A stretch of 64,000 nucleotides of DNA. Source: an uncultured Gammaproteobacteria bacterium (GTDB lineage: Bacteria > Patescibacteriota > Patescibacteriia > Magasanikbacterales > UBA922). A program made the translations under genes and the position numbers. This document shows, piece by piece, positions 888 through 61,117 of this stretch; position 1 is the stretch's first letter; each line of letters begins with the position of its first letter. The stretch is taken from contig OZ246405.1 in the NCBI GenBank assembly GCA_965231005.1, positions 295,204 to 359,203 of the forward strand. Reading direction: 5' to 3'. The notes beneath the pieces are model-generated. The model worked only from the letters and a program-made list of their open reading frames with translations, did no database searches and had not been told where the DNA came from.

Positions 888-902
888 TGACAAAACTGAT
901 AT

Positions 903-2303: not shown

Positions 2304-2432
2304 AAATTTAAAAGGCTTTAAATGCCGTAAAGGCCATAAAGGCAAAAAGGCTCCTGGTTTGAGGAGTTTTTTTGTTTCTCAATATTTATTTTTATGCTAT
2401 CATTCTAAAGTTCCACAACAAGGGGGTGATTC

Positions 2433-3275
2433 ATGGGGACAAGAATTCAGGCAAGACTCGTGGGTGCAAAGTTTTTCAGGTCAATGTCCTGGAAGCTGTT
2501 CAATGTTGGTCGCCCAGCGACTGGCATTTACGCGTTCTTACTGACGCTCATCAGCTTCAGTTTTGACGACGGGGCATCATGGTATGTCAGACTCGTAACA
2601 GCAGCTTGCTTTGCTGGCATCACCATGAGCATCATGGCGTTCAATGACTGGACTGACAGGTACCACGATCGAAAAAAAGGAAAGACATTCGTAAGCGAGA
2701 ATGAGGCCGCTGTGATCCGGTACTGGCTCCGACTCGCTGCAGTGACAGCTGCGCTTTTGCTCATGGTTGTGAGTTCGAGCCTTGCACTCGGTGCACTCTG
2801 CTCGCTGGTTTGGGCTGTTGGTCTTGCATACTCTTTCGTGCCTCACTGGTTTGTTACACAGAACGTCATGGTCGCACTTTGTTCTGGCTCTCCAGCGCTC
2901 TGCGGAATGGCGTACCATCAGCAATACTCAAAAGCTGCTGTGGCCACATTTCTCATCCTTGTGTTTTTAGTTCTTTGGAATGAAGTGCTCAAAGACATTG
3001 AGGATGCAGGGATTGACCTTGGGTACAAAGAAACGTTCCCGCTTCGCATAGGTCATGTGCGAAGTGTTGCCATGCTGATTGGTTTCCAGTCTATGCTCGC
3101 TATGATGTTTTTATTTCATCCAAACGAGTGGGTGGTTTCTGTCGGGATCGTCTCAATGCCGCTGCTTGCGTTTCAGCTTGCATACCTACTCCTCCATCCC
3201 GAACGTGTGAAGCGACCAAAGTTCATCATTCAACACACGATCACAGCTCTTTTGACCGTCCTTCTCTTTACGTAG
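2433..3275 (+). CDS. UbiA-family prenyltransferase-like integral membrane protein (GC-rich island gene)
   Basis: Multiple TM helices. First Asp-rich motif NDWTDRYHD (NDxxDxxxD); second D-rich motif DIEDAGID. Preceded by ACAAGGGGGTG at 2418-2428. GC content is visibly higher than in neighbouring genes. Confidence 0.55.
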   Translation: MGTRIQARLVGAKFFRSMSWKLFNVGRPATGIYAFLLTLISFSFDDGASWYVRLVTAACFAGITMSIMAFNDWTDRYHDRKKGKTFVSENEAAVIRYWLRLAAVTAALLLMVVSSSLALGALCSLVWAVGLAYSFVPHWFVTQNVMVALCSGSPALCGMAYHQQYSKAAVATFLILVFLVLWNEVLKDIEDAGIDLGYKETFPLRIGHVRSVAMLIGFQSMLAMMFLFHPNEWVVSVGIVSMPLLAFQLAYLLLHPERVKRPKFIIQHTITALLTVLLFT

Positions 3276-3380
3276 GTCTAGAGGCGATCGGTGGAACAAA
3301 AAAACCGTCCGTGAGCCTTGCAATGGTTCTCATATTGGGGAATATTGCAAGGAGACTACGGGCGGTTTTTGATTTTCAAA

Positions 3381-3881
3381 TTATTCTATTGACTTTTGAA
3401 GTCGAGCACGAGTTGTTTCTGAAAGTTTTGTAAATTTTTTAAGAACGGCTTCAATATGTTCGTCATACATGTACTGTTCCATTTTTGAGACGAATTCATC
3501 CTGATCAATTTCAGGAAGAAGGTCAATGTGTTTTGTTACAAATTCGATTTGTATTTCTTCATCTTGGAAAATTTTTAAAAGCTTAGCAATATCCAGATTC
3601 CGTCTTCGAAACTCTGCAATAAAATGTTCTCCGTGGGTAATGATCCATCTTCTGTCTTCATAATCTGCAAGCATTCCAATTAATAGTTCTTCAGGAACAT
3701 GTGGTAATACAGATTCTGCTATGCCGTCATGAACTGCAGCAAGAACATCGTGCATGTTGTCATCCCAAATGAGTGTTCCTGTTTTATCATAATCAAAATC
3801 AACCTCTGGCCATTGCACACTTGCCCAATTACGTTGTTCTAGTATTTGTCTACGAGTTAGTTTTTGTTCTGGACTTCCCAT
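3381..3881 (-). CDS. hypothetical protein (acidic, cytoplasmic)
   Basis: The ORF 3381..3956 has an N-terminus that runs into a GC-rich island. The internal Met at 3881 (MGSPEQ...) is the more likely start. Confidence 0.45.
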   Translation of the reverse strand: MGSPEQKLTRRQILEQRNWASVQWPEVDFDYDKTGTLIWDDNMHDVLAAVHDGIAESVLPHVPEELLIGMLADYEDRRWIITHGEHFIAEFRRRNLDIAKLLKIFQDEEIQIEFVTKHIDLLPEIDQDEFVSKMEQYMYDEHIEAVLKKFTKLSETTRARLQKSIE

Positions 3882-4005
3882 ATAAATACATTTTTTTGTG
3901 CGACCCCAGGATCGACACACAGAACAGTGGCTTGCGCCACATTGTACCGGAGGCATGCCTGTGGTTGTTCGTGCGTCGACCCTGGGTCGGTTGTTGGCGC
4001 CTTGC

Positions 4006-4107
4006 TCAGATGGTGAGGGTGAGCTCGCAGGAACGGTCGCCGTCGTGGGGCGTGCTCATGATGCAGAGCTGGTCGTCGGTCGGGATGTGCGTGCTGTGCT
4101 TGTGCAT
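4006..4107 (-). CDS. candidate small ORF (33 aa, MHKHSTHIPTDDQLCIMSTPHDGDRSCELTLTI) inside a GC-rich island
   Basis: ATG is preceded by AAGGAGA at a 7-nt spacing. It lies in a 270-bp GC-rich insert between two AT-rich genes. Could be spurious. Confidence 0.2.
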   Translation of the reverse strand: MHKHSTHIPTDDQLCIMSTPHDGDRSCELTLTI

Positions 4108-4183
4108 GGTGCCGTCTCCTTGGTGTGTGGCGATTGTGAAGGTAGTGTATCAAAGGAATAAGAGATCTTCAAACAAAAAAGCG

Positions 4184-5706
4184 TCATTGAATTCTGGTCC
4201 GATATTGCAATGCCTCTGCAATATGTTCGGTTTTAATTTGTTTTTCACCAGCAAGATCTGCAATTGTTCTGCCTAACTTTAAAATTCTATGATAACTTCT
4301 TGCAGAAAGCTGCATTTGTGTTACTGCTTGTCGCAACAAATTTGTTGATGCAGTATCGAGCACACAATATTCTCGAATTTGCTTATTTGTCATTTCACTA
4401 TTAGTTTTGCAAGATGTTTTTTCAAATCGTTTGTATTGAATAGTTCTTGCTGCTTCAACACGGAGCCTAATGTTTTCTGAAGATTCTTCCAAGTCTTCTT
4501 TTCGCAGTTTTTCAAAAGGAATACGGGGAACTTCAACATGTAAGTCTATTCTGTCGAGGAGTGGTCCACTTATCTTTTTCTGGTACCGTGCAATTTGAAT
4601 TGGAGAACATACACATTGCTTTTCTGTGTCTGTTGCAAAACCACAGGGACAAGGATTTTGACTTGCAATTAAACTAAATTCTGCAGGAAATGTTATTGTT
4701 CCTTGTGCTCGCGAAATTGTAATCACTCCATCTTCAAGTGGTTGGCGGAGTGTTTCTAATACTTGTCTTGGAAATTCAGGAAATTCATCTAAAAATAATA
4801 CACCGCGGCGTGCAAGAGAAATTTCTCCTGGACGAGGAAATGTTCCTCCACCAACTAGCGCGACACCACTTGCACTGTGATGTGGTGCACGAAATGGTCG
4901 TTCGGTAATGAGTGGTTTATCTTGTTTTAGTAATCCTGCAACTGAATAGACTTTTGTTACTTCAATTGCTTCATCAACGGAAAGTCTTGGAAGGATTGTT
5001 GGAAACGTTCTAGCAAGCAATGTTTTTCCAGAACCAGGTGGTCCATTTAGAATAATATTATGACCTCCGCTTGCTGCGATCTCAAGCGCGCGCTTTACAA
5101 ACGATTGCCCTTTTACATATGCCATGTCTAGCTCATATTTTCCATGCGTAAACCACTCTTCAATTGGTTGTGGTTTTAATTTTGTAATTATTTTTTTCTT
5201 TTGTATGTGCTCCACAAGAGCATGAAATGTTTTACAGGATAAATTGAAATATCAGAAATAACACTCGCCTCTTTTGCATTTACTGCAGGGACGAACAGTT
5301 CTTTGTATCCTTTTTCTTTTGCAAAAATTGCAAGAGGAAGAATACCAGTTGTGTGGCGCAGTGTTCCGTCGAGTGCAAGTTCACCAACAAAAAGAGCGTC
5401 AGAAATATCAACGCCCTTTATTTTTTGACTTGCTATAAACATTCCCACTGCCATTGGCAAATCATATGCTGTTCCTGATTTTCTCACATCGGCTGGAGCA
5501 AGATTAACAATAACACGACTATTGTATGGAAATGTAATTCCAGCATTTTTCCACGTTGTACGAATACGATGCTTTGCTTCTTGTACAGCAGCATCTGGCA
5601 ATCCAATAATTTGATATCCTGGCCATGTGCCAGCAATATCTACTTCAACAGTAATTGGTTCACAATCCAAACCAAGAACTGCTACAGAGTTTATCTTTGT
5701 AAACAT
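4184..5706 (-). pseudogene. comM: comM/yifB (Mg-chelatase-like AAA+ ATPase, competence protein ComM), split by a frameshift in an A7 homopolymer
   Basis: The N-terminal Lon-like domain (ORF 5188..5706) and the AAA+/ChlI domain with GPPGSGKT (ORF 4184..5215) are in different frames. They overlap by 28 nt around a T7/A7 run at 5191-5197. Normally this is one ~500 aa protein. Confidence 0.7.
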
Positions 5707-5749
5707 ATTCCCTCCTTGTTATTAGTTAATAGATACTAGTTAATAGTTA
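5707..5749. repeat. TAATAG/TTATTAG-rich repeat (left flank of the four-helix-bundle gene)
   Basis: ttattagttaatagatactagttaatagttattag. Inverted relative to 6131-6175. Related copies lie at 10495-10530, 57505-57530 and 58797-58889. Confidence 0.4.
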
Positions 5750-6130
5750 TTAGTCACTTCGCTCTTTTGTTGTAGAGATAAGACTATTAATAAGTTTTTT
5801 TACTTCAATTGTTAATTTTGCTATATCGTTGAATCTATCTTTTGCTAAGTATCCAATGTCCCTAGAAATAAGTAATTGATTTTGGACTTCATTTAATGAA
5901 GCAAAAGAAATTGAATAAAATTGAATTTTTTGCTTTTTTGACTTTCTTCCAAAGCCTTCTGATATATTTGATGTAATAGATACTACCGCTCTTCTGATTT
6001 GAATCGTCAGGCCAAACTGTTCTTCTTTTGGAAATGATTTTGTTATTTGGTAAATCAAAATAACTAGTCGATGCGCTTTTTTCCATGCATCCAATTGAGT
6101 AAAAGATCTCAAATAATTTCCCTCCCTCAT
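5750..6130 (-). CDS. four-helix-bundle protein (the family usually found in the 23S rRNA intervening sequence, TIGR02436-like)
   Basis: The sequence FTQLDAWKKAHRLV...ISEGFGR...NQLLISRDIGYL is typical of the family. Here it is free-standing and flanked by inverted TAATAG repeats. Confidence 0.65.
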   Translation of the reverse strand: MREGNYLRSFTQLDAWKKAHRLVILIYQITKSFPKEEQFGLTIQIRRAVVSITSNISEGFGRKSKKQKIQFYSISFASLNEVQNQLLISRDIGYLAKDRFNDIAKLTIEVKKLINSLISTTKERSD

Positions 6131-6175
6131 GTTTGTATATTAACTATTAACTAATAGCTATTAACTATTTTTTTT
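6131..6175. repeat. TAATAG/TTATTAG-rich repeat (right flank, inverted)
   Basis: The reverse complement of ttaactattaactaatagctattaactat matches the left-flank motif. Confidence 0.4.
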
Positions 6176-6601
6176 CCGCTCTCCCTTAATTAAGAGTATT
6201 ACCCCCAGCACAATTATGATATCTGCAATATTAATCACCGACGTTGCAATGCGAAGATAATCAATCGTAATTCCAAATAACATTCTATCAATAAAGTTTG
6301 AAACTGCACCAAATATAATGAGTACAAGTCCTGCAACAAGAAAATTATTTTGTTTTTTTTCTTTGCTTACTGCGTAATAAAGCCAGAGTAAAATAATTGG
6401 TGTAAGAATTGCAAGAAGAATTTGAGAAAAGGGAAGAGAAAAGGCAATTCCTGGATTTGCAAAATATTCCCACCCTAACCATGGTTTCCAAATATAAAAA
6501 CTAGAAAACGGATTTGTTCTTATTATATATTTTAGTAATTGGTCCAGAAATAAAAAAACCCCTCCCATAATCACGAACCAGATTGTTTTTTTTGGCATCA
6601 T
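6161..6601 (-). CDS. lspA: lipoprotein signal peptidase (signal peptidase II)
   Basis: Motifs ANPGIAFSL, VSNFIDR and NIADIII. Four TM helices. Confidence 0.85.
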   Translation of the reverse strand: MMPKKTIWFVIMGGVFLFLDQLLKYIIRTNPFSSFYIWKPWLGWEYFANPGIAFSLPFSQILLAILTPIILLWLYYAVSKEKKQNNFLVAGLVLIIFGAVSNFIDRMLFGITIDYLRIATSVINIADIIIVLGVILLIKGERKKNS

Positions 6602-6607
6602 AGGTTA

Positions 6608-6994
6608 TTACACCTCATCTTTCAATGTTTTTTTACAACTAACGCAAGATGATGATGTTGGTCTTGCTTGAAGTCTAGGAATGCTAATAGGTTCATCACA
6701 GTATTTACAAATACCATAATCGCCTTTTTCAATTCTGTCGAGTGACTTATTAATATCACGCAATCTTTTTTCAAGTGTAATCTCAAGTGACTTGCTTACT
6801 TGGTATTGTGCAACTTCTTGTACACTATCGTCCACTTCGTCACCAACATCTTCAAATTTTGCATTGTAATCACCTTCAACATGAGGATTCTTTTCTGAGA
6901 ATCCTGAAAGTTCTTTTTGAAGTCGTTCTCGTTCTTCTAAAAGCTGTGCTTTTATAATATCTAGGTCTTGGAGCTTGTGTTTTTTCGCAGCCAT
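6608..6994 (-). CDS. DksA/TraR family C4 zinc-finger protein
   Basis: N-terminal coiled coil and a C-terminal CKYCDEPISIPRLQARPTSSSCVSC (CxxC...CxxC). Confidence 0.7.
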   Translation of the reverse strand: MAAKKHKLQDLDIIKAQLLEERERLQKELSGFSEKNPHVEGDYNAKFEDVGDEVDDSVQEVAQYQVSKSLEITLEKRLRDINKSLDRIEKGDYGICKYCDEPISIPRLQARPTSSSCVSCKKTLKDEV

Positions 6995-7145
6995 ATATCG
7001 GTTGGTTATTTATTATCTCTAGGAGGCTATTATACTCAATTTGTCTTGGTGTTGCAAGTAGTAAGTATTAAGAATTAAGACTAAGGATTAAGAATTAAAA
7101 TTTACTAGATGCAGTCTTAATTATTAATGCTTAATCTTAATTTTT

Positions 7146-8236: not shown

Positions 8237-8583
8237 GACCTCCTCCTATAGGTTGGAAACGCTGATTGTGCGTTTTGGTCCTATAGAAATATATAAGAGA
8301 TATTGAGGAGTGTCAACGTTTTTAAGGGTGATTTTTATATAAAAGGCTTATTTTAGCCAAATATTGCCATTTTCCTCTTGACAAAAGCCCTTTTTTGTGC
8401 TATACTGCTATGTCTACTTACAATGGAATATAGTACGAGAATCGTGGTATATTTCTGTAAGGGATGGATCTTTACAAACATCATCACACTAGTCGGATGG
8501 GTGATTGTAGTTAAGCTGAAAAAAGACTGATTACAACCACTCATTCGACAACAACGTTCGCAAACATAGCACAAGGAGCTCAC

Positions 8584-9066
8584 ATGCGATACATCTTTCT
8601 GGCCATCATCAGCGCGGCCTTCCTCATTCCCACCCACAACGCCGAGGCAGCGACCAAAGCGTCCGATGTCGCCAAGGTCATCAAGCTCATGACCAAGCCT
8701 GGTCGCACCAAGGGCGCGCTGTCCAAGAAGCGCTACAACAAGGGCAGCAGCTACCAGATCGTATTCCGGTCCAAGGGGATGCGCTACACGTTCTACTACT
8801 CGGGCAAGACCTTCGGCAACGGCATGAAGGTCGACGAGCCGTGGCTGGCAGTCTGGGTTCGCAAGGACGGTACTCGCGGTCTTCGACACCTCGATTCTTT
8901 CTCCGACCGTATGCTCGACGGCACCGTCAATGGTGGTGGCGCCAAGAACGGCAAGGAGAAGAACTTCGATGACCACCCACGTCGAGCTGAAGGCAAGCAG
9001 TACCGTGCGTACTGGCAGCGTCAGTACGATCTCGCGATCAAGCGTGCCCTGAAGCGACTTCGCTGA
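8584..9066 (+). CDS. secreted hypothetical protein (signal peptide), GC-rich island gene
   Basis: N-terminal signal peptide MRYIFLAIISAAFLIPTHNAEA. RBS ACAAGGAG. The antisense ORF 8353..9162 is judged spurious. Confidence 0.6.
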   Translation: MRYIFLAIISAAFLIPTHNAEAATKASDVAKVIKLMTKPGRTKGALSKKRYNKGSSYQIVFRSKGMRYTFYYSGKTFGNGMKVDEPWLAVWVRKDGTRGLRHLDSFSDRMLDGTVNGGGAKNGKEKNFDDHPRRAEGKQYRAYWQRQYDLAIKRALKRLR

Positions 9067-9516
9067 CGGACAACAGAAGGTGTGATGATGTGGTCGGAGT
9101 GATCTGACCAAAGATTCTTTGGGGCGTAGATGCAAGTCACGCCCCCACCTTCTTTTGTACATTTATAAAGTGTGCAGAAGAGGAAAAATATTTCAAGAAT
9201 ATTTTTTCTGTCGTTATGAGTGTGACACAATTTGATTTGAGTAATCTATTTACTTTTTAATAAGTCGAAAGAGTACTTCGTCACTTTGTTCCTCGCAATG
9301 ACAGTAGAGGCTCTTTACAAGTCGTCAATCAAGTGAAGTATTTGTTACACTATAATATAGTGTGTCGTATGCTTCACTTGAAAAAGTTGGAGTGCAATAT
9401 GCTTTGCGTGTACAGAAGATTCGTTCCATTTGGGGAACGCATCAAGATTCAAACGAATCGTTGTACGGGACGCTTAGCATCCTTCTGTCATGCGTGACAA
9501 GAGAAGGGAGAGAAAA

Positions 9517-10266
9517 ATGGCTACCACAACTTCAACCATCGAACCACCTGCCCCGCCCCGTTACCGTGAACCCACCTGGTGGGACAAATTCCGCGAGACG
9601 CCTCACTGGCTGCCGAACGGCACGTACCGTCAGGACGCGGCCATCTGGTTCGGCATGTTCGGCTCGTTCATCTTCCTCGCCGCACCGATCGTGGGTTATG
9701 TCCAGCCGACCTCGCATAACATCCTGGATGCGTACATGGCGGTCTGGACTTTCCTGACTTCGGAGTCCACCTGGATTGGTGCTGGCAAGCTCGTCGGTTT
9801 CCTCGGCGGTGGGACGATCGCAGTGTTTCTTGCGCTCGCCATTTTCTTCGGAAGCCTGTACCTCGCCTTTCGGTTCGTGCTAGAGCCGATCGGTCGGGGA
9901 TGGAACAGGCTCATGGCCTGGGATCATCGTCGGCTGTACGGCAAGTACGAAGACGAGATCGCAGAGCTCCGCAGGAAGCTGTGGGCGTCCAATGACAAGG
10001 TCGAGTCGCAGCTGACAGAGCTGGAAATGCGAGACCGGCAGGTCGAAAACCTTGAGCAAGCCCAGTCCGACCTGACCTGGTCAGTGGCATGTGTTGCTGC
10101 TGAGCTCAAGGCGGACGTGCGGAAGCGAGGAGCAGCGAACGCTCGTGTCAAGAAGGGCATTCGGAGGAAACTGATCCAGGGTCTGAAGCTTTCGATCCCA
10201 GAGCAGCGTCGACTGGACCACCTCCTGGCTCAGGCCAACCGCGTAGTCAACGGCGACATCGACTAG
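9517..10266 (+). CDS. hypothetical membrane protein with a C-terminal coiled coil, GC-rich island gene
   Basis: RBS AAGGGAGAG before the internal ATG (MATTTS). Two or three TM helices, then a coiled coil. Confidence 0.5.
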   Translation: MATTTSTIEPPAPPRYREPTWWDKFRETPHWLPNGTYRQDAAIWFGMFGSFIFLAAPIVGYVQPTSHNILDAYMAVWTFLTSESTWIGAGKLVGFLGGGTIAVFLALAIFFGSLYLAFRFVLEPIGRGWNRLMAWDHRRLYGKYEDEIAELRRKLWASNDKVESQLTELEMRDRQVENLEQAQSDLTWSVACVAAELKADVRKRGAANARVKKGIRRKLIQGLKLSIPEQRRLDHLLAQANRVVNGDID

Positions 10267-14705: not shown

Positions 14706-15344
14706 TTAACCTCCCTTTGTTTGTTCTCTGGACGCAGCCGTCGCGACTGCTTGTGCAACTGCTGCCACGCTTCGCTGGTTTGCTGCAGTAACATTGCTTC
14801 CTTTGTAGAGGTTGGAGACATGATGGTCAAGCTCTGTTGATCCCCAGATGACAACCACGTCAGCCCAGGCAATGTCTGCCCTTGCTTGTGTTCGGTTTCT
14901 CCGCTTTGTGCCGTGCACAAGCCGCAGATTGATATCGCTTCCAACAAAACCAGCCAAGGCTTTTCGACTGCTTGGAGAGCCACCGACTACACAGACTTGG
15001 CTCCATCCAACATTGCGACAAGCTTGAATCATTTTGCGTACAGCTCGTTGGTTTGATGATCCTCCACAGATCTGGCAGAAATGCTGCTTTGCAGCGCGCG
15101 CTACAAACCGTTCTCCCTTGACCACACCTGCCTCAGTTCTGCAATCCCCTCGATCGCAGACGAGCAATACGAATTCTGCAAGAAGTTTCTTTGCCGTTTC
15201 GATTTTTTTTGTACTGATTCGTTTCTTGCTAGGTCTACTAACCCCAGCATCTTCGAGAATCAACTCAAAGATCTCCATGTCACCGGCATACCCAAGCGAC
15301 AAAAGGAGATCAGCTTTTGACACATCGGGATTTCCCTTAGTCAT
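14706..15344 (-). CDS. hypothetical protein (possibly DUF2325-like), GC-rich island gene
   Basis: AAGGAGG Shine-Dalgarno 5 nt upstream of the ATG. C-terminal VVVIWGSTELDHH. GC content is visibly higher than in the neighbours. Confidence 0.45.
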   Translation of the reverse strand: MTKGNPDVSKADLLLSLGYAGDMEIFELILEDAGVSRPSKKRISTKKIETAKKLLAEFVLLVCDRGDCRTEAGVVKGERFVARAAKQHFCQICGGSSNQRAVRKMIQACRNVGWSQVCVVGGSPSSRKALAGFVGSDINLRLVHGTKRRNRTQARADIAWADVVVIWGSTELDHHVSNLYKGSNVTAANQRSVAAVAQAVATAASREQTKGG

Positions 15345-15589: not shown

Positions 15590-15653
15590 CAGATTGTGCT
15601 CTAGCCTCAGCCAAAGGCTGATCCGCCTCTGGCGGAAACTGAGCTACACTCCG
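15590..15653 (-). pseudogene. tRNA-Pro 5'-end fragment (CGGAGTGTAGCTCAG) fused to a hairpin-rich insert
   Basis: The first 15 nt are identical to the tRNA-Pro 5' end. Hairpins CCGCC-agag-GCGG and CAGCC-tttg-GCTG follow. There is no anticodon, T-arm or 3' acceptor. Confidence 0.35.
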
Positions 15654-15689
15654 ATGTGTTTTTTCACATTGTGAAGTGTGCCAGTTTAT

Positions 15690-15775
15690 CCCAACTGTCC
15701 CGAAGCCTCGACTTTGTCGAGGGTACGGGACTCCGACTGAACGCTTTGCGTTCACGTCGGAGAGCTACACTCCGA
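15690..15775 (-). pseudogene. second tRNA-Pro 5'-end fragment (CGGAGTGTAGCTC) fused to a strongly structured insert
   Basis: Contains a 13-bp stem TCCGACGTGAACGC/GCGTTCAGTCGGA and a GTCCCG...CGGGAC helix. Confidence 0.3.
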
Positions 15776-15838
15776 TGCTTCATCAATGCTTTGCAGCGCA
15801 AGCGAGTGTGCCTGCACTTCGAAGCCTTGGCGAAGAAG

Positions 15839-18346: not shown

Positions 18347-18850
18347 ATGCCAGAAGCAGCTGATATCCCTTTGGAAGTCCATCCAGATGGAAGACTCGGT
18401 CCGCCCTTTCCTTTACCCGAAGAGTGCGATACTCCAGCCTGTCGAGACGCCCGCCAGGAGTTGGGGAGAATTCGTAAAAAGATCACAGATCTTTGCACTC
18501 AACAGAGCGATGCAAGGCAGAAAGAAAAAGATGCTGATGACGAGATGGTCTTTGCAGCGTCTTTGGTCCCTATCCTCATGATTGCTGCGTTAGCGCTCGC
18601 GTTCATTCCTTTTGTCGGGATTTGGCTTGCAGGGCTTGCACTCGCTGCAGCATTCGAAGCTGGTCGAAGAGCAAACAAAGCTCGACAACGGAGAGACAGG
18701 TATCGGAGACTGATTCAAGATCTGTATCGCATGATCGATGATGAGCAAGCAAAGTGGGTTCGTGCGATTATTCGATTTCACAGAGAATGTGCAGAACCCT
18801 GTCGGGTTGGCATTGATGAAGACATGCCAAGCTGTCCGTCGTACGTGTAA
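18347..18850 (+). CDS. hypothetical membrane protein, GC-rich island gene
   Basis: RBS TAGGAGCA. One central TM helix; charged, Arg-rich tails. Confidence 0.5.
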   Translation: MPEAADIPLEVHPDGRLGPPFPLPEECDTPACRDARQELGRIRKKITDLCTQQSDARQKEKDADDEMVFAASLVPILMIAALALAFIPFVGIWLAGLALAAAFEAGRRANKARQRRDRYRRLIQDLYRMIDDEQAKWVRAIIRFHRECAEPCRVGIDEDMPSCPSYV

Positions 18851-19044: not shown

Positions 19045-20070
19045 ATGAAGCATTCAATAATTGTTATTAATGATAAAGAGGTAATTAAAGGGGAGGGGTT
19101 TGGAGCATGTGGTGTATATCCAGGTGAGCTAGTTTTTAATACATCAATGATAGGATATGTAGAAGCAATGACAGATCCTTCGTATGCAGGCCAAATTTTA
19201 GTTTTTTCTTACCCACTGATTGGTAATTATGGTGTGGGTCAATCTTGGCAAGGGTCTTCTAAGATCCAACCGAAGGCTGTTATTGTGTCTGAGCTTTCGG
19301 ATGTATTTTCACATAAAGATGGCTATCAAAGTTTTGAAGATTTTTGTAAGGAGCATAACGTTGGTGGAATGAAGGGGGTTGATGTGAGATTCCTCGTAAA
19401 AAGACTTACTCAAGAAGAAATAGAAAGCGCAGTTCTGTGTGTGTATGAAGACACTCCTGAAGATTTGGTGCGCACAGTTACGAGAAGTAGTGTTGAAGTT
19501 AGAAATTTAGGTGGTCAGAAGCGTGTTGGTATCATTGACTATGGAGTCAAGGAAAGTATCATCAGTTCATGTACAAAAAGAAATGCAGAAGTCATTATTT
19601 TTCCGGCAACCGTAAAAACTACTGAGATTATTTCATATGATGTCGACGGCATAATTTTGTCAAATGGACCAGGAGATCCGGAGTCATACGAGTACACTCA
19701 CAAGACGATCAATGAATTGCTGGAATCTGGTTTACCTTTGTTTGGTATATGTCTTGGCCACCAACTTGTTGCGTGTGCTACAGGCGCTAAGGCGTATAAG
19801 TTGCCGTTTGGACATCGTGGTGTGAATCATCCTGTCTTTGACATGAGAAAGAAAAAAGCATATATAACATCTCAAAATCATGGATATGCAATTGATTCAG
19901 AAACACTTCACGAAGATTTTGTTCCTAGATTTAAACATCTAAACGATGGATCAGTCGAAGGTGTTAGTCATAAAACAAAACCAGTTTTTACAGTTCAGTT
20001 TCACCCAGAAGCACGACCAGGGACACAGGATACTTCGTTTCTCTTTGATGAATTTTTTTCATTTTTTTAA
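19045..20070 (+). CDS. carA: carbamoyl-phosphate synthase small subunit
   Basis: N-terminal CPSase small domain plus a GATase domain: GICLGHQL...FHPE. Confidence 0.9.
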   Translation: MKHSIIVINDKEVIKGEGFGACGVYPGELVFNTSMIGYVEAMTDPSYAGQILVFSYPLIGNYGVGQSWQGSSKIQPKAVIVSELSDVFSHKDGYQSFEDFCKEHNVGGMKGVDVRFLVKRLTQEEIESAVLCVYEDTPEDLVRTVTRSSVEVRNLGGQKRVGIIDYGVKESIISSCTKRNAEVIIFPATVKTTEIISYDVDGIILSNGPGDPESYEYTHKTINELLESGLPLFGICLGHQLVACATGAKAYKLPFGHRGVNHPVFDMRKKKAYITSQNHGYAIDSETLHEDFVPRFKHLNDGSVEGVSHKTKPVFTVQFHPEARPGTQDTSFLFDEFFSFF

Positions 20071-20071
20071 T

Positions 20072-22795
20072 ATGACAAATAAGAAAGTACTCGTTATCGG
20101 CTCAGGACCAATAGTAATTGGACAAGCAGCAGAGTTTGATTATTCTGGAACACAGGCTTGTTTGGCATTGAGAGAAGTAGGAATAAGAACTGTTCTTGTT
20201 AATTCCAACCCTGCGACAATTCAAACAGATCATGAAACTGCAGATACCGTTTATATTGAGCCACTTACTGTTTCGTCGCTTGAGAGTATTATTAACAAAG
20301 AGCGGCCAGATGCTCTTATTCCAACAGTCGGTGGGCAGACTGCGCTGAATTTAACAATGGAACTAGAGCAGCAGGGTATTCTTAAAAAATACAACGTAGA
20401 AATTCTTGGAACTGGGATTTCAGCAATTGTAGATGGAGAAGATCGTGGAAGATTCAGGACAATCATGGAGCAGATTAGTCAACCTGTTTTACCAAGTATT
20501 GTTGTTTCTTCTTTTCAGGAAGGTTTACGTTTTGCAGAAGAGGTCCGATATCCGGTTATAATTAGAAGTTTGTATACATTGGGTGGAACAGGAAGTAGTA
20601 TTGCTCATTCAGACACTGAGCTCGAGGAGAAAATAGGAATTGGGATTACTATGAGTCCAGTAAATCAGGTCTTACTTGAAAAAAGTGTTGTTGGGTGGGG
20701 AGAATTTGAATATGAAATGATGAGAGACTCTGCAGGAAATATTATCATGATTTGCAACATGGAAAATATCGATCCTATGGGTGTGCATACTGGAGAGTCT
20801 ATTGTTGTTGCACCCTCCCAGACATTGTCTGATCAGGATCACCAAATATTGAGAACAGCTGCTTGTAAAATTGTTGAACGTCTAGATATCCAAGGAGGTT
20901 GTAATGTTCAGTTTGCTTTTGATTATGAGACAGGTGATTTTTATGTTATTGAGGTTAATCCACGTCTTTCGAGAAGTTCTGCTTTGGCATCTAAAGCAAC
21001 AGGCTATCCAATTGCAAAGATAGCAGCACATATTGCACTTGGGAAAACTCTACCTGAAATAGAAAATACAATTACTGGAAAGAGTGCGTTTTTTGAGCCA
21101 GCGCTAGATTATGTTGTTATAAAGATTCCTAGATGGGCAGACGATAAATTTGCTGATATGAATATAAATATTGAGATGACCATGAAGAGTACAGGAGAGA
21201 CCATGGCTATTGCAACAACATTTGAACAAGCTTTTTATAAGGCAATAGTAGGATTAGAGTTTAAGAAAACATTCACAGACCTGATAAAAGAAATTCCAGA
21301 AGATAAGGTCAAAGAAATGCTTATGTTTCCTTCGACGAAACGTCTTTTTGCTATTTTAGCTGCATTTAGGTGTGGGCTAGATCAAGAGGCTGTTGCTAGG
21401 ATGACAAAAATTCACCCGTGGTTTATAAGAAAAATATATAATCTGTTCTGTAATTATAAAACAATTAAAAAGTCATTTACTGTGTTTAAACAAGTGGATA
21501 CTTGTGCTGGTGAATTTACAGCGCATACTCCATATTATTATTCTTCACAAGGCGTAGAAGATGAGGTTCCTCCATTGGAGGGCCCAAAAGTTATTATTCT
21601 TGGGTCCGGGCCGATTCGCATTGGGCAAGGAATTGAATTTGACTACATGACCGTTCATGCAGTCAAAGCTCTCCAAAAATTAGGAATTAAAGCAATTATT
21701 ATTAATAATAATCCTGAGACAGTTAGCACTGACTATACTGTTTCAGACAGACTATATTTTGAGCCACTTCGTTCTGAATTTGTTTTGAATGTTATCAAAA
21801 AAGAGGCAGATGGACTGCTTGGAGTTATCCCTCAGTTTGGAGGTCAAACATCTATCAATTTAGTCAAAGATTTAGAATCGGCAGGTGTACATATCCTTGG
21901 AACAAATTCTTCATATATTTTTGCAGCAGAAGATAGAGAGGTCGCAGCAAACTATATACAGAAGATTGGTCACAACATGCCGCGCTGGGTTGTTTCTAAA
22001 GGTAAAAAAGATTTTTTGCTGAAAACACAAGAACTTGGTTTTCCACTTCTTGTTCGTCCTTCGTTTGTTCTTGGTGGAGAAGGAATGATTATTGCACGAA
22101 GTCTAGAAGATGTTGAATCATATGCTGAAAATCTCGAAGAGCAATTTTCTCAACCAATTTTAATTGACCAATTTCTTGAAGATGCAGTTGAGATTGATAT
22201 TGATTTAATTTCAGATGGAAAGAGAACAATAAGTTTTGTTATTGAGCAACTTGATCCAGCAGGTGTCCATTCGGGAGATAGTCGCTGTGTTTTTCCTGCA
22301 CAAAGCCTGGACAAAAATGTGCACGAAAAGCTTAATAAAATTGCATCTGATATAGCTACAGTTTTTGGTATTGTTGGTGTAGCAAATATACAATGTGCAA
22401 TAAAAAACGATAAGATTTATATATTAGAGGTAAATCCAAGAGGTTCCAGAACAATACCTTTTTTAGGTAAATGTCTTGGTATTTCTTTGCCTGCAATTGC
22501 AACGCAGGTCATTATGGGAGAAGAATTGCCGACAATTATGAAAGATATGTTTGGAGATCGAGTCTGTATAAAATATCCAGTGTTTTCGTTAGAAAAACTT
22601 CCAGGTGTTTGTTCTCGTTTGAGTCCTTTGATGAAAAGTACAGGAGAGGGAATGTGTATTGGGAAAAGCTTTGAAGAGGCACTGAAGAAAGTCGATCATG
22701 ATGTTGATTGCGACGGGTTATTAAATATATATCCATTGATTTCATCTCATTTCAACATAAAAGAAAAAGTTGACAGTATTCGGCAGGTCGCGTAA
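20072..22795 (+). CDS. carB: carbamoyl-phosphate synthase large subunit (908 aa; the C-terminal MGS-like allosteric domain appears to be absent)
   Basis: Two ATP-grasp halves, each followed by an MKSTGE(T/G)M motif. The protein ends about 50 aa after the second motif. Confidence 0.9.
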   Translation: MTNKKVLVIGSGPIVIGQAAEFDYSGTQACLALREVGIRTVLVNSNPATIQTDHETADTVYIEPLTVSSLESIINKERPDALIPTVGGQTALNLTMELEQQGILKKYNVEILGTGISAIVDGEDRGRFRTIMEQISQPVLPSIVVSSFQEGLRFAEEVRYPVIIRSLYTLGGTGSSIAHSDTELEEKIGIGITMSPVNQVLLEKSVVGWGEFEYEMMRDSAGNIIMICNMENIDPMGVHTGESIVVAPSQTLSDQDHQILRTAACKIVERLDIQGGCNVQFAFDYETGDFYVIEVNPRLSRSSALASKATGYPIAKIAAHIALGKTLPEIENTITGKSAFFEPALDYVVIKIPRWADDKFADMNINIEMTMKSTGETMAIATTFEQAFYKAIVGLEFKKTFTDLIKEIPEDKVKEMLMFPSTKRLFAILAAFRCGLDQEAVARMTKIHPWFIRKIYNLFCNYKTIKKSFTVFKQVDTCAGEFTAHTPYYYSSQGVEDEVPPLEGPKVIILGSGPIRIGQGIEFDYMTVHAVKALQKLGIKAIIINNNPETVSTDYTVSDRLYFEPLRSEFVLNVIKKEADGLLGVIPQFGGQTSINLVKDLESAGVHILGTNSSYIFAAEDREVAANYIQKIGHNMPRWVVSKGKKDFLLKTQELGFPLLVRPSFVLGGEGMIIARSLEDVESYAENLEEQFSQPILIDQFLEDAVEIDIDLISDGKRTISFVIEQLDPAGVHSGDSRCVFPAQSLDKNVHEKLNKIASDIATVFGIVGVANIQCAIKNDKIYILEVNPRGSRTIPFLGKCLGISLPAIATQVIMGEELPTIMKDMFGDRVCIKYPVFSLEKLPGVCSRLSPLMKSTGEGMCIGKSFEEALKKVDHDVDCDGLLNIYPLISSHFNIKEKVDSIRQVA

Positions 22796-22942: not shown

Positions 22943-23167
22943 TCAGCACCATGACTCGCGCTGCAGCTCATGGCCGTAGGCGACTTGCACGCGGTGCTTG
23001 ATGTCCTCCTCGCAGTCCTTGTGGTCGCAGCAGCGGATCGCGATCGTGGAGGAACGGTTCTCGGGGAAGGCCTCACGCACCGACGGCCTGCCGCATTCGT
23101 TGATGCAGTCATCGCCCTGCCAGCTTGCTTTGGAGCGAAAAGCCACCTCGATCTTGTTATCGCTCAT
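22943..23167 (-). CDS. small Cys-rich hypothetical protein (74 aa), GC-rich island gene
   Basis: GGAG 7 nt before the ATG. A TTGACA promoter lies upstream on the minus strand. Motifs CINECGRP...CCDHKDC. Confidence 0.4.
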   Translation of the reverse strand: MSDNKIEVAFRSKASWQGDDCINECGRPSVREAFPENRSSTIAIRCCDHKDCEEDIKHRVQVAYGHELQRESWC

Positions 23168-23343
23168 GATGTTCTCCAGATGAGTGTACCGGTGTTGTTC
23201 ACTGGCACGGTTTGGGTTGATCTGTTGCCAAGCGTAGCGGAAAAAGAGGTGTATGTCAATAATGAAATAAAAAAAAACAGGCTATTCACCTGTTTTTCTT
23301 TGAGCTACACCTGGCCTAAAGGCCAGGCAAGGACTCTTTTTTG

Positions 23344-23395
23344 TGGAGCGGCAGACCGGACTTGAACCTGCCTGCCGGCAGGCAGGCCGGCGACA
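23344..23395 (-). repeat. element B copy 1: tRNA-Gly-like 3' end (T-arm plus acceptor plus CCA) fused to a perfect 20-bp palindrome
   Basis: The reverse complement reads GGTTCAAGTCCGGTCTGCCGCTCCA, which is one mismatch from the tRNA-Gly(GCC) acceptor arm. It is preceded by the palindrome CCTGCCTGCCGGCAGGCAGG at 23367-23386. Confidence 0.5.
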
Positions 23396-23405
23396 ACAAA
23401 ACAAA

Positions 23406-23430
23406 AAGGTCAGCTATTTGCTGACCTTTT
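23406..23430 (-). terminator. bidirectional terminator after tRNA-Gly(GCC)
   Basis: GGTCAGC-tatt-GCTGACC flanked by A- and T-runs. Confidence 0.5.
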
Positions 23431-23439
23431 CGCTTTTAG

Positions 23440-23511
<72 letters not shown>

Positions 23512-27602: not shown

Positions 27603-27800
27603 TCAGTTGGCGGGCAGGGCGTTGCAGGCCTTCACCTCCTGGAGTCCGATCGGCGTCTTGGCGGTCGTGTTCCAGCCACTGGCCAGCAAGACCGTGCCGT
27701 TCGGCAGCCTGATGCACCGCGGAATCGTCCCATCCTTGCTGTGTCCTTCCAGATCGAGTCTGTACTTGATTCCTTCCCACGTGATCGTGATCGTTTCCAT
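27603..27800 (-). CDS. small hypothetical protein (65 aa), GC-rich island gene
   Basis: GGAGGT 7 nt before the ATG. The composition is beta-rich (METITITWEGIKYRLDLEGH...). Confidence 0.4.
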   Translation of the reverse strand: METITITWEGIKYRLDLEGHSKDGTIPRCIRLPNGTVLLASGWNTTAKTPIGLQEVKACNALPAN

Positions 27801-31593: not shown

Positions 31594-31812
31594 TCGGAAT
31601 ACCCGAACGGTGCTCACGGCAAGTTCGGGAGCATCAAAAGAACATCTTAGAAAGGTGTTTTTTTGATATAAAAAACACCCCGACCAGGCAGGCGCCCCCT
31701 CCTTCGCTCATCTCTATGCTCGCTACGCTTCGCATCGGTGAGCTTCGGCGGGCAGGCGCAATCGAACTAGAGTAAAACAAAGACTCCCCTTAGGGGAGTT
31801 TTTATTTTGGAG

Positions 31813-31918
31813 CGTGCCACGAGATGGCGCCCATTGGAATATTGTCGCACGTGGCCACGTAAAATGACCTTCGGTCATCACGTGGCTCACTCAAAATGGC
31901 TCGCGCCATTTTTCGTGG
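31813..31918 (+). ncRNA. conserved structured element A, copy 2
   Basis: Same architecture as 781-887. The inner hairpin is ATGACC-TTCG-GGTCAT, against GGCAC-TTCG-TGCC in copy 1, so the changes are compensatory. It directly follows a terminator at 31770-31800. Confidence 0.35.
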
Positions 31919-31950
31919 AGCGGACCTGCCTGCCGGCAGGCAGGCGACCC
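31916..31950 (-). repeat. element B copy 2: tRNA-Gly(UCC) acceptor-3'-end-plus-CCA-like fragment fused to the same 20-bp palindrome
   Basis: The reverse complement reads CCTGCCTGCCGGCAGGCAGG-TCCGCTCCA. GTCCGCT matches the 3' acceptor strand of the adjacent tRNA-Gly(UCC). The palindrome lies at 31925-31944. Confidence 0.5.
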
Positions 31951-32024
31951 TGCCTACGCTTTCAGCTCCGGCAGGTAAACTCCATCTCAGCAAGTTCAAT
32001 TCCTTGCCCGTCAGGCCCAAACTA

Positions 32025-32052
32025 AAAATCGCCCACCCTTTCGGGTGAACGA
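32025..32052 (-). terminator. terminator of tRNA-Gly(UCC)
   Basis: Minus strand reads CACCC-gaaa-GGGTG, then GGCGATTTTT. Confidence 0.5.
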
Positions 32053-32062
32053 TTTTCAGTAG

Positions 32063-32133
32063 AGCGGACGACCGGAATCGAACCGGCGTCATTGGCTTGG
32101 AAGGCCAAGGTAATACCATTATACCACGTCCGC
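32063..32133 (-). tRNA. tRNA-Gly (UCC)
   Basis: GCGGACGTGGTATAATGGTA...anticodon loop CTTCCAA...GGTTCGATTCC...CGTCCGCT. Confidence 0.9.
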
Positions 32134-34406: not shown

Positions 34407-35714
34407 ATGAACAAGACACTGTACATTCACAACGCACGACGAGCACTTCCTTGGTTTACGTTTCCAGGGATTCATTTTTACCCAGATCGCACGCTGTCTC
34501 TCGACGAGGGGCAAACGGTTCTCAGTACTGGTCTCGAAGATGGAGTGGCTCGCGGTCAGTTTGCCTACTACCGAAGCATTGGGATCGGTCCAGATCACAT
34601 CATCGAGGTGCCTGCGCATCGTTTTGATGGTGATTTGTACCAGGCAGTTCTCAACACGCCAGGTGCTGTCCGGCATGTGCGGCGGCTCGTGTTTGACCAG
34701 GGATTCAAGATTCAGTTTTTCTGTACAAGAATGCCAGTCATTGGCGAGGCAGCAGATCTGACCACTGGTTTCGAAGAAAGCTTCATTCGTGATCTTGGTA
34801 TGGTCTGGGACGAGCATGTTCTGTCCTTGCCAAGCCAGATCGCTGACATAGGGAACAGCAAAGCTGCTGTTCGTCGCATCGCAACAAGCGACTTGAACGG
34901 AAGCAGTCAATTTCTGCCACACAAGATCTCCAAGACAGGCATCGGCCTTGTCCAGGCTGCGTGGGAGATGAAAAAAGAACATGGTCGCATCATCGTCAAG
35001 CTGCCAAACTGGGCTTCTTGCCTGGGCATGGTTGCCAATCCTTCTCCGGCTGAACTCGCTCGGTTCATGTGGCATCACCGTTCACGACTCTCTGACGTCA
35101 TTGTCGAGCCGTGGATGGGTGCAGACCATGTTGCCATGTCAGTCCTCGTCCGATACGAAAACGGATACGAGGTTGATCGATGGCATACTGAGCAGCTCTG
35201 TGAGTCCCATGAAGATGGAACGATCTCGCTGAACGGAAATGTGCTTTCGCCCAACCTCGAGAACGTGACAAAAGAAGACATCGACTGGCTGAACAAGTCG
35301 GCCGATGCAATGAACGCTCGAATTCTGGCTCGGAAGTCAAACCTGACTGGACTCATCTGCTGGGACGGGCTTCGGGATTCAGACGGTGAGCGATGGCTGC
35401 TCGAAGGAAACGCTCGCGAGACCTTTACCAGCTATGTCCGTTCAATGCAGCGGGCGCTTTCAAGACAGATTGGGTACATCCCGACCTGCCTGCTCTACAA
35501 GGTGCACCCAAAGAACATCCTGTCGTTCAGTGAGATCAAAAGACGGCTCGACTCTGATTTGTATGGTCCGATCAGGCGATGCGGTGTGATTCCAATGATG
35601 ATTCGTTGCCAGCTCGGTGCAGGCCAGCCTTACTTCTACTGCGTTGCAGTGGGCAAGTCAGTCCAGCATGCAAGTGCCATCATGGGCCGTGCAAAGATCG
35701 TGCTCGAAAAGTGA
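34407..35714 (+). CDS. hypothetical protein, possibly ATP-grasp-like; GC-rich island gene
   Basis: RBS AAGGGGG. The C-terminal ERWLLEGNAR resembles the ATP-grasp E-x-N motif. No other recognisable motif. Confidence 0.4.
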   Translation: MNKTLYIHNARRALPWFTFPGIHFYPDRTLSLDEGQTVLSTGLEDGVARGQFAYYRSIGIGPDHIIEVPAHRFDGDLYQAVLNTPGAVRHVRRLVFDQGFKIQFFCTRMPVIGEAADLTTGFEESFIRDLGMVWDEHVLSLPSQIADIGNSKAAVRRIATSDLNGSSQFLPHKISKTGIGLVQAAWEMKKEHGRIIVKLPNWASCLGMVANPSPAELARFMWHHRSRLSDVIVEPWMGADHVAMSVLVRYENGYEVDRWHTEQLCESHEDGTISLNGNVLSPNLENVTKEDIDWLNKSADAMNARILARKSNLTGLICWDGLRDSDGERWLLEGNARETFTSYVRSMQRALSRQIGYIPTCLLYKVHPKNILSFSEIKRRLDSDLYGPIRRCGVIPMMIRCQLGAGQPYFYCVAVGKSVQHASAIMGRAKIVLEK

Positions 35715-60972: not shown

Positions 60973-61117
60973 TAGGTCATTGTTCTTTATATTTTGTCGG
61001 AGTATTTCCACAAAGATGGTGGGGAATTACTGGGTTTGCGTCCTGTGGTTTTCCCCCATCTTTACACACAACAGAGCAGAATGGGTGGGGATGTACTGCT
61101 TTGTGAGGTACTTTATT

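Follow-up and report, generated by a model that had tools for sequence, protein, structure and literature searches.

A 20-bp palindrome lies downstream of two tRNA-Gly genes

We analyzed a 64,000-nucleotide stretch of a bacterial chromosome (contig OZ246405.1, positions 295,204 to 359,203; hereafter the window) in which a perfect 20-bp palindrome, CCTGCCTGCCGGCAGGCAGG, hereafter PAL, lies downstream of two tRNA-Gly genes. The window is low in GC (about 38%), and its genes include carA, carB, a LysE exporter gene, and toxin-antitoxin genes. Seven tRNA genes were the only Rfam covariance-model matches to reach threshold. The genes for tRNA-Met and tRNA-Gly(GCC) span 23620-23439 and tRNA-Gly(UCC) spans 32133-32062, all on the minus strand, each preceded by a near-consensus promoter. 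None of these three resident tRNA genes encodes CCA, and both tRNA-Gly genes end in CTA.

PAL occurs exactly twice in the window, at 23367-23386 and 31925-31944. The two copies are identical, as an earlier note made from the same DNA had reported, and dinucleotide shuffles of the window contained no match. Each copy lies beyond the terminator hairpin of its tRNA-Gly gene, within a partial copy of a tRNA-Gly 3′ end that includes CCA. These 3′-end copies had also been recognized in the note, and we confirmed them on the minus strand. Read on that strand, site 1 runs from the terminator to GTCGCCGG-PAL-TTCAAGTCCGGTCTGCCGCTCCA, and site 2 runs from the terminator to GGTCG-PAL-TCCGCTCCA. The order at both sites is tRNA, terminator, fragment, and a second terminator-like hairpin. 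The gap between gene and fragment is 44 bp at site 1 (the terminator) and 112 bp at site 2 (the terminator plus 74 bp of unassigned sequence). A 13-kb contig from the same study, assembled independently with MEGAHIT, is 100% identical over both PAL sites. The features of the two sites are as follows.

Site 1
23439-23511, minus strand: resident tRNA-Gly(GCC), apparently a hybrid; nucleotides 1-48 are those of the version in other contigs except for C5T, and the T-arm, acceptor 3′ strand, and CTA differ
23404-23430, minus strand: terminator hairpin directly after resident tRNA-Gly(GCC), a self-complementary 27-mer that may have arrived with a new 3′ end
23387-23394, minus strand: fragment 1, 5′ part GTCGCCGG, variable-loop and T-stem bases of the apparently displaced tRNA-Gly(GCC) 3′ end
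23367-23386: PAL copy 1, between the T-stem 5′ strand and the T-loop of fragment 1
23344-23366, minus strand: fragment 1, 3′ part TTCAAGTCCGGTCTGCCGCTCCA, the exact tRNA-Gly(GCC) 3′ end in nine metagenome contigs
23310-23327: second GC hairpin CCTGGCCTAAAGGCCAGG, read directly between GAGT and TGTAGCTCA
23269-23301, minus strand: second intrinsic-terminator-like hairpin, after fragment 1, possibly the original terminator of the ancestral gene

Site 2
32062-32133, minus strand: resident tRNA-Gly(UCC), ending in ...GGTCGTCCGCTCTA, without CCA
32027-32053, minus strand: terminator after tRNA-Gly(UCC), a hairpin and U run
31945-31949, minus strand: fragment 2, 5′ part GGTCG
31925-31944: PAL copy 2, two bases into the acceptor 3′ strand of fragment 2
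31916-31924, minus strand: fragment 2, 3′ part TCCGCTCCA; together with the 5′ part, 13/14 identical to the resident tRNA-Gly(UCC) 3′ end, the difference being CCA versus CTA
31893-31913, minus strand: small hairpin and T run AAAATGGCGCGAGCCATTTT, read directly after fragment 2, possibly the original terminator
31685-31694, plus strand: half-palindrome-like motif CAGGCAGGCG, exact; a one-mismatch copy lies at 31749-31758

The palindrome had been described as joined to each tRNA fragment, but it is inserted inside it, with eight more tRNA bases beyond PAL at site 1 (23387-23394) and five at site 2 (31945-31949). Removal of PAL from site 1 joins GTCGCCGG to TTCAAGTCCGGTCTGCCGCTCCA as a continuous 31-nt tRNA 3′ end, and in the predicted fold the T-stem of fragment 1 pairs around PAL. 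Removal from site 2 joins GGTCG to TCCGCTCCA, giving GGTCGTCCGCTCCA, which differs from the resident tRNA-Gly(UCC) end at a single base. Nor is the second copy a deletion variant of the first, as had been thought. The acceptor strands of the fragments differ (CTGCCGC versus CGTCCGC): that of copy 2 matches the resident tRNA-Gly(UCC) acceptor strand, GGTCGTCCGCTC, and that of copy 1 agrees with the tRNA-Gly(GCC) genes in other contigs. The point at which PAL interrupts the tRNA differs as well: the T-stem/T-loop junction in copy 1, the acceptor strand in copy 2. Rfam gave no match over either fragment even at E values up to 10. The copies of a CAGGCAGGCG-type motif that had been noted as degenerate are present, the first exact and the second with one mismatch, and the two flank a 54-bp GC-rich stretch.

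The PAL hairpin is predicted to be stable (-13.9 kcal/mol). It does not resemble an intrinsic terminator: no U tract follows it (the next bases are TTCAAG and TCCGCT), and the terminator scan reported other hairpins.

Further structured sequence surrounds the two sites. At site 1, GAGT, the hairpin CCTGGCCTAAAGGCCAGG, and TGTAGCTCA can be read, weakly, as a tRNA 5′ start (the window tRNA-Pro starts with CGGAGTGTAGCTCA). At site 2, an inverted hairpin resembling a tRNA 3′ end, GCAAGTTCAATTCCTTGCCCGTCAGGCCCA (31980-32013, plus strand), abuts the tRNA-Gly(UCC) terminator, and fragment 2 is followed by a structured stretch of roughly 110 nt (31780-31915), which closes with a second ...GGCACGCTCCA and then a terminator (31783-31799). 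The hairpin and the stretch may represent more debris from tRNA genes, or else a small RNA.

PAL is a discrete insertion

Related sites with and without PAL were compared. At one position, an intact tRNA-Met is present in five related viral contigs (L172-L176). In another viral contig (L152), the same tRNA-Met has PAL between CACGAGG and TCGCCGG; exactly 20 bp have been added and the insertion site is otherwise unaltered. A related tRNA-Met (L129) carries PAL together with an 11-nt deletion. In one viral contig of 29 kb, a hairpin, CCCATCCTTGCG..GCAAGGGTGGG, is repeated about 13 times, and PAL occupies the same loop position in three of these repeats. At six bacterial loci (L107, L038, L084, L031, L005, and L119), the intact tRNA gene has next to it a partial copy that contains PAL, and without the 20 bp these copies are colinear with the gene (46/46 bases identical in L107 and 30/30 in L038). 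PAL is sometimes nested within another PAL (L019 and L043).

Target-site duplication was not found, and the lengths of flanking repeats equaled those of controls. Flank repeats of at least 5 bp occurred at 8 of 167 sites (five of them exactly 7 bp), all in tandem-repeat contexts. The flanks of PAL are mutually unrelated: k-mer sharing ends at the 20-mer, which rules out a larger conserved element around it, and the sole bias is an A (41%) at position -1. In the PAL loci examined, all 38 variants with one to three mismatches were asymmetric, with a broken dyad and without compensatory changes. This is as expected of decay from a perfect master copy and speaks against selection for pairing. These data show that PAL is a discrete insertion with no target duplication and no fixed target.

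Two viral contigs carry multiple PAL-like copies. In L161 (IMGVR_UViG_3300025106_000007), a tandem array of at least 10 21-bp PAL-variant units (CATGCCTACCGGCAGGCAGGC) occupies 3916-4142 and reaches the contig end, and 10 kb of L150 contain eight PAL-like copies, among them an inverted doublet.

PAL is shared by distant bacteria and viral contigs

An exact-match scan of 596 Gb, with one genome per species, listed at least 120 PAL loci, each from a different species representative and with a median GC content of 42%. By chance, about 0.03-0.5 copies would be expected in 596 Gb (well under one at 35-50% GC), and about 0.03-0.15 at the median composition of these loci. By record titles, the hosts listed include many lineages of Patescibacteria, Bacteroidota (seven of them cultured isolates), Omnitrophota, Planctomycetota, Verrucomicrobia, Elusimicrobia, Ignavibacteria, Thermodesulfovibrionales, Thermodesulfobacteriota, Bdellovibrionales, Gammaproteobacteria, and Chloroflexi. 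PAL-bearing isolates include Winogradskyella echinorum KCTC 22026 and Longitalea luteola SYSU D00799. Some of the PAL-bearing assemblies are long-read, going by their contig names. PAL was also found in 35 viral contigs. It was found in none of 50,697 cultured phage genomes and none of 72,556 plasmids, and it was absent from 106 kb of control loci, including nine contigs with the same version of tRNA-Gly(GCC). The same 20 bases thus recur across more than ten bacterial phyla and in viral contigs, which suggests that PAL spreads, or is regenerated, from a common template.

Copy number appears low, with two copies in the 64-kb window and one or two per 8-kb locus elsewhere. The neighbors of PAL elsewhere are genes for tRNA-Met, Lys, Leu, Ser, Val, or Thr, or no tRNA gene at all. 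Neither the 20-mer nor CCGCCAGCTGGCGG appeared in any paper of the literature searched, and keyword searches yielded nothing relevant.

PAL is enriched in tRNA-like sequence

PAL sites are mostly intergenic, which rules out coding insertion or translational bypass as a general explanation. They are also enriched in tRNA-like sequence, which contained 15 of 167 PAL junctions versus 83 of 3,981 control intergenic positions (odds ratio 4.6, P = 6e-6). Likewise, 17 of 127 PAL sites lie within 300 bp of a tRNA gene, compared with 3.1% of random positions. The earlier note had regarded a palindrome both widespread and unrelated to tRNAs as evidence against its reading; PAL is indeed widespread, but not independent of tRNA sequence. 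The tRNA cases inspected are partial copies rather than working genes, except for the viral tRNA-Met (L152, with its decayed relative L129). Dead tRNA ends may be preferred targets, or they may be the sole tRNA-like DNA that tolerates insertion.

Several cases suggested that PAL enters at stem-loop boundaries: the T-arm in the window, the anticodon arm in L107, the D-arm in L159, L086, and L100, and host hairpins in L020, L068, L092, and L148. Across all sites, no such rule could be shown. The difference was slight when perfect-arm hairpins were used (11% versus 6.5%, P = 0.017) and not significant by minimum free energy folding (24.5% versus 20%, P = 0.06), and hand mapping of about 14 tRNA cases placed 6 at boundaries, 4 within stems, and 3 within loops.

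All-against-all clustering of open reading frames (ORFs) found no enzyme family common to the approximately 155 PAL loci. GIY-YIG genes occurred in seven loci and a four-helix-bundle protein in five. At four loci, a small GIY-YIG gene (about 85 amino acids) lies between a PAL-bearing 5′ partial tRNA copy and the intact tRNA gene (L038, 2115-2402; L107, 3741-3998; L119, 5881-6264; L159, from about 570 onwards), with Pfam confirmation in the first three. The arrangement suggests a selfish nuclease gene whose entry into a tRNA gene is made good by a duplication. Such insertion is a second route to dead tRNA ends, besides integration.

Other mini-hairpins

A different pair of mini-hairpins was found between the window genes for tRNA-Phe and tRNA-Pro (15598-15777, minus strand), where the intact tRNA-Pro gene is preceded by two incomplete copies of its 5′ end (CGGAGTGTAGCTC...). 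In one of these, two 15-nt GC hairpins, TCCGCCAGAGGCGGA and TCAGCCTTTGGCTGA (15607-15636), split the D-loop as a precise 30-nt insertion without duplication. The phenomenon seen at the tRNA-Gly sites recurs here with other mini-hairpins. The pattern TCCGCC-N3-4-GGCGGA defines a second cosmopolitan family, with 24 matches in 17 sources (16 loci and the window at 15622-15636), whereas a composition-matched control pattern had none. The loci include L012, L016, L017, L020, L021, L033, L041, L044, L104, L109, L111, and L119. Members often adjoin PAL and sometimes lie within tRNA-like sequence (L119), and a Planctomycetales metagenome-assembled genome (L020) has the two-hairpin pair in the same order as in the window. 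A further motif, TCCTCGCAATGACA (the reverse complement of GTCATTGCGAGGA), is common to the window (9270-9305) and eight PAL-bearing loci; it is part of a further short, hairpin-like sequence with repeated occurrences in unrelated environmental genomes.

The tRNA-Gly fragments resemble 3′-end replacement scars

To trace fragment 1, JGI metagenomes were scanned for the 23-mer that lies 3′ of PAL at site 1. It was found in nine contigs, in eight of which it is the 3′ end of an intact tRNA-Gly(GCC); the ninth gene is cut by the contig end. Fragment 1 is identical to the tRNA-Gly(GCC) 3′ end of these nine contigs at 31 of 31 positions. The complete genes read GCGGCAGTAGTTCAG(C)TGGTAGAACGTCTCCTTGCCAAGGAGAAGGTCGCCGGTTCAAGTCCGGTCTGCCGCTCCA, with two extra compensating anticodon-stem changes in one contig. 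Six of the nine contigs also carry homologues of the window genes at 900-7009 (35-52% amino acid identity), in the same order and beside the tRNA, and therefore come from distant relatives. Fragment 1 is thus shown to be the lineage-typical tRNA-Gly(GCC) 3′ end.

The resident tRNA-Gly(GCC) departs from this version mainly in its 3′ part. Its first 48 nucleotides are identical apart from C5T. After nucleotide 48, two T-stem pairs, one T-loop base, acceptor base 68, and CTA for CCA differ, so that the resident T-arm reads AGGGTTCAACTCCCT and the ancestral-type T-arm CCGGTTCAAGTCCGG. Base 68 pairs with the changed base 5, making C5T a compensating change, and the remaining differences are confined to the 3′ 25 nt. 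The old 3′ end of tRNA-Gly(GCC) therefore appears to have been displaced by an incoming one, and site 1 looks like an integration-type 3′-end replacement scar.

Elements that use tRNA genes as attachment (att) sites, among them phages with tyrosine integrases, integrative and conjugative elements, and genomic islands, restore the 3′ end of the tRNA gene that they enter. Work by Williams from 2002 is reportedly an example of such sites. The window resembles them in that a gene with a substituted 3′ part is followed by its original 3′ end as a direct partial repeat (31/31 at site 1 and 13/14 at site 2), with a new terminator as an element would supply. It differs in its short gaps (44 and 112 bp), in the lack of cargo and of a detected integrase, and in the splitting of the repeat by an unrelated 20-bp insertion. 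These repeats support the view that the fragments are tRNA 3′-end duplications of the kind that integration leaves; such scars are ordinary remnants of tRNA att sites. If both tRNA-Gly genes were rebuilt at their 3′ ends, they would therefore be landing sites for foreign DNA.

Of the earlier attL/attR interpretation, the 3′-end duplication thus stands, but no cargo, integrase, or distal repeat accompanies it. No cargo lies between gene and fragment at either site. As had been noted, no integrase was visible: integrase, recombinase, and transposase families were absent from the 33 ORFs scanned, a subset of the window ORFs that takes in all of the 26-31.6 kb block. That block, accessory-looking in the note, might be taken for cargo of the element, but no further copy of either tRNA-Gly 3′ end bounds it. 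No viral source was found for either version of the tRNA-Gly 3′ end, and exact-protein look-ups for close relatives returned the same strain only.

Comparison of PAL with known repeat systems

We class PAL among the small palindromic insertion elements. The closest precedents for its movement may be the HUH/Y1 systems (REP-RAYT and IS200/IS605), although their defining features that could be examined here are lacking. REP and REPIN sequences are mobilized by RAYT (HUH/Y1) transposases and form species-specific families of imperfect palindromes with a GTAG head. Like them, PAL is a short, GC-rich, extragenic palindrome that is presumably non-autonomous and makes no target duplication, and REPIN-like doublets occur in one viral contig (L150). 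Unlike them, PAL has a perfect dyad and no conserved 5′ GTAG-type head (only the A bias at -1). Its copies are few in the DNA covered (two in 64 kb, one or two per 8-kb locus), where species-specific families have tens to hundreds per genome, and its identity across phyla argues against membership. No RAYT gene was seen near PAL in the loci examined. IS200/IS605-type insertion occurs 3′ of a fixed 4-5 nt target and without duplication; PAL sites show no duplication and no fixed target, only the A bias at -1.

In behavior, PAL seems closer to the GC-cluster palindromes of yeast mitochondria than to REP elements. GC clusters and byp-type mini-insertions are organellar, lineage-restricted sequences of 30-60 bp, often with short target duplications. 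Both they and PAL are tiny GC-rich palindromes in AT-rich DNA that can be nested and that vary in presence between relatives, but PAL is 20 bp long and is common to several phyla of bacteria and to viral contigs. It differs from REP elements and GC clusters in size, dyad perfection, apparent copy number, and above all cross-phylum identity. MITEs, Correia elements, and RPE-type elements are 100-300 bp long, with terminal inverted repeats and target-site duplications made by DDE transposases. PAL likewise is a short, presumably non-autonomous insertion sometimes found inside genes or RNA genes, but it is too short for such ends and lacks the duplication.

Free-standing GIY-YIG homing-endonuclease genes occur in tRNA gene regions, e.g., T4 SegB (PMC2330249). 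Loci L038, L107, L119, and L159 are similar in having a small GIY-YIG gene beside a tRNA gene and its partial duplicate. The window has no GIY-YIG gene; PAL lies outside the ORF and mostly occurs without GIY-YIG.

Proposed history of the two sites and alternative explanations

The explanation we find most probable has two parts: 3′-end replacement at both tRNA-Gly genes, then insertion of PAL into each dead fragment. An incoming DNA segment with its own tRNA 3′ part and terminator (23404-23430 at site 1) would have recombined into each gene, displacing the original 3′ end, with its CCA and its own terminator-like hairpin, downstream as a dead fragment (by 44 bp at site 1). Any cargo once held between gene and fragment would have been deleted later, and a copy of PAL would then have inserted into each fragment. 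We infer this order of events, and the loss of cargo, from the present arrangement.

Under this explanation, PAL would insert as a unit, without target duplication or a strict target, mostly into non-coding DNA and disproportionately into tRNA-like sequence. Being non-autonomous, it would be moved, or copied from a template, by a trans-acting activity. Our evidence is evenly poised on whether PAL is a kind of extremely small mobile DNA not described before. Such an element would be copied into non-coding and tRNA-like DNA, without duplicating its target, in at least ten bacterial phyla and their phages, and would form part of a wider set of cosmopolitan mini-hairpins (e.g., TCCGCC-N3-4-GGCGGA) that colonize dead tRNA ends left by integrating or homing elements. 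Its movement would then have to depend on an activity on hairpin DNA that is widespread among hosts or phages. A trans-acting enzyme that works on single-stranded or hairpin DNA is our tentative guess at the agent, and a guess more apt to be wrong than right.

Several observations weigh against this account. One or two copies per 8-kb block is unusual for an actively transposing repeat family, the preference for stem-loop boundaries is weak or not significant overall, and no enzyme family recurs beside PAL. The nearest CarB is about 63% identical and lies in a different gene context, and no closer relative was found, so there is no empty or filled allele of the window sites for comparison. Site 2 has no outgroup, and since its fragment and the resident end differ by CCA/CTA only, a change in either direction would fit. 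Most awkward for an old event is fragment 1 itself, which is still identical to distant relatives at all 31 positions even though it should be free to mutate, while the resident gene has already been compensated. Its intactness would fit a recent import of foreign DNA.

Because a letter-perfect dead fragment lies beside a gene with a compensating change, we keep such an import as a live alternative, though an unlikely one. The fragments would then be DNA of related bacteria captured by homology-facilitated illegitimate recombination or break repair, with PAL already inside or inserted later. In keeping with this, fragment 1 shows no decay from other organisms' tRNA genes, CCA is present in the fragments and not in the resident tRNA-Gly genes, a GC-rich orphan ORF in the flanking DNA looks foreign, and a possible second tRNA start follows 7 nt after fragment 1. 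However, the changes in the resident gene are confined to the part duplicated by the fragment, as replacement predicts, and behind each fragment stands a separate terminator-like hairpin, correctly oriented and ordered. PAL is also absent from the control loci, including the nine contigs. The arm-site proposal of the earlier note, in which the fragments are attL/attR repeats of a tRNA-Gly-specific element, the palindrome is an arm-type recombinase site, and the 26-31.6 kb block is possibly cargo, fares far worse, and we regard it as largely refuted and very improbable. It accommodates the 3′-end duplications downstream of both genes, the resemblance of fragment 1 to a displaced native end, and the toxin-antitoxin and ParB-like genes of the neighboring block, which are typical accessory DNA. 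It does not accommodate a palindrome that interrupts the tRNA-like core, at a tRNA position that is not the same in copy 1 as in copy 2, and that recurs with unrelated flanks in at least 120 unrelated species and 35 viral contigs, beside varied tRNAs or none. In addition, no integrase was found in the ORFs scanned, only a terminator (site 1) or a terminator and 74 bp (site 2) separates gene from fragment, and the block has no distal repeat.

PAL could instead be a selected cis-acting site: the operator of a DNA-binding protein that acts as a dimer, or a hairpin in RNA by which transcripts are stabilized or terminated. Its perfect dyad, stable hairpin, exact conservation across phyla, and mostly intergenic position would suit such a role. 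We consider it improbable, given that the presence of PAL varies among orthologous and paralogous sites, that PAL lies inside tRNA genes and fragments (with a further 11-nt deletion in the L129 tRNA gene), and that copies are nested in other copies. The lack of a U tract, of compensatory changes in variants, and of a conserved neighbor gene also argues against selection. That PAL arose by chance, or as an artefact of assembly or library preparation, is the least credible explanation of all. Most matches are indeed metagenome-assembled genomes, but chance predicts well under one copy, the flanks match host composition and include the host's own tRNA duplicates, and PAL is carried by seven cultured isolates and, by contig names, by long-read assemblies. 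The identical independent assembly of both window sites also speaks against an artefact.

The cosmopolitan 20-bp insertion is a more interesting result than the integration scar. Twenty letter-perfect bases shared by distant bacteria and viral contigs, yet variable between close relatives, are hard to explain by known transposition chemistry, because PAL is too short for transposase ends, makes no duplication, and apparently has few copies per genome. Whether it represents an undescribed mode of DNA mobility seems to us a question with about equal weight on either side. If mobile, PAL would be among the smallest mobile DNAs known. It would then also mark an unrecognized DNA-hairpin transaction and give rise to tRNA pseudogenes in bacteria and phages. 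Since seven cultured Bacteroidota isolates carry it, the question is open to bench testing. In this genome, PAL should not be used to hunt for integrases.

Other features of the window

Several GC-rich patches, with ORFs of 50-60% GC that lack a family match, interrupt the 32-38% GC genome. At least two are small ORFs (22943-23167 and 27603-27800, both minus strand), each with a near-consensus promoter and a terminator. The 74-amino-acid product of the first, which lies beside site 1, had no homologues among 5.8 billion proteins. Further patches lie at 8353-10266, 14706-15344, 18347-18850, 34407-35714, and 60980-61822.

The carB gene (19946-22795) encodes 907 amino acids and lacks the usual C-terminal allosteric domain. 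Its nearest homologues (L125-L127, about 60% identity) sit with carA in sugar or capsule biosynthesis clusters. Because CarB is truncated and its homologues have this context, the carAB pair of the window may serve a carbamoylation pathway rather than arginine or pyrimidine synthesis.

An 800-amino-acid protein encoded at 45481-47883 (plus strand) has eight Dictyostelium-type (Dicty_CTDC) repeats. Together with the 1.23-Mb size of the source contig, this protein suggests a small-genome bacterium associated with amoebae or other protists.

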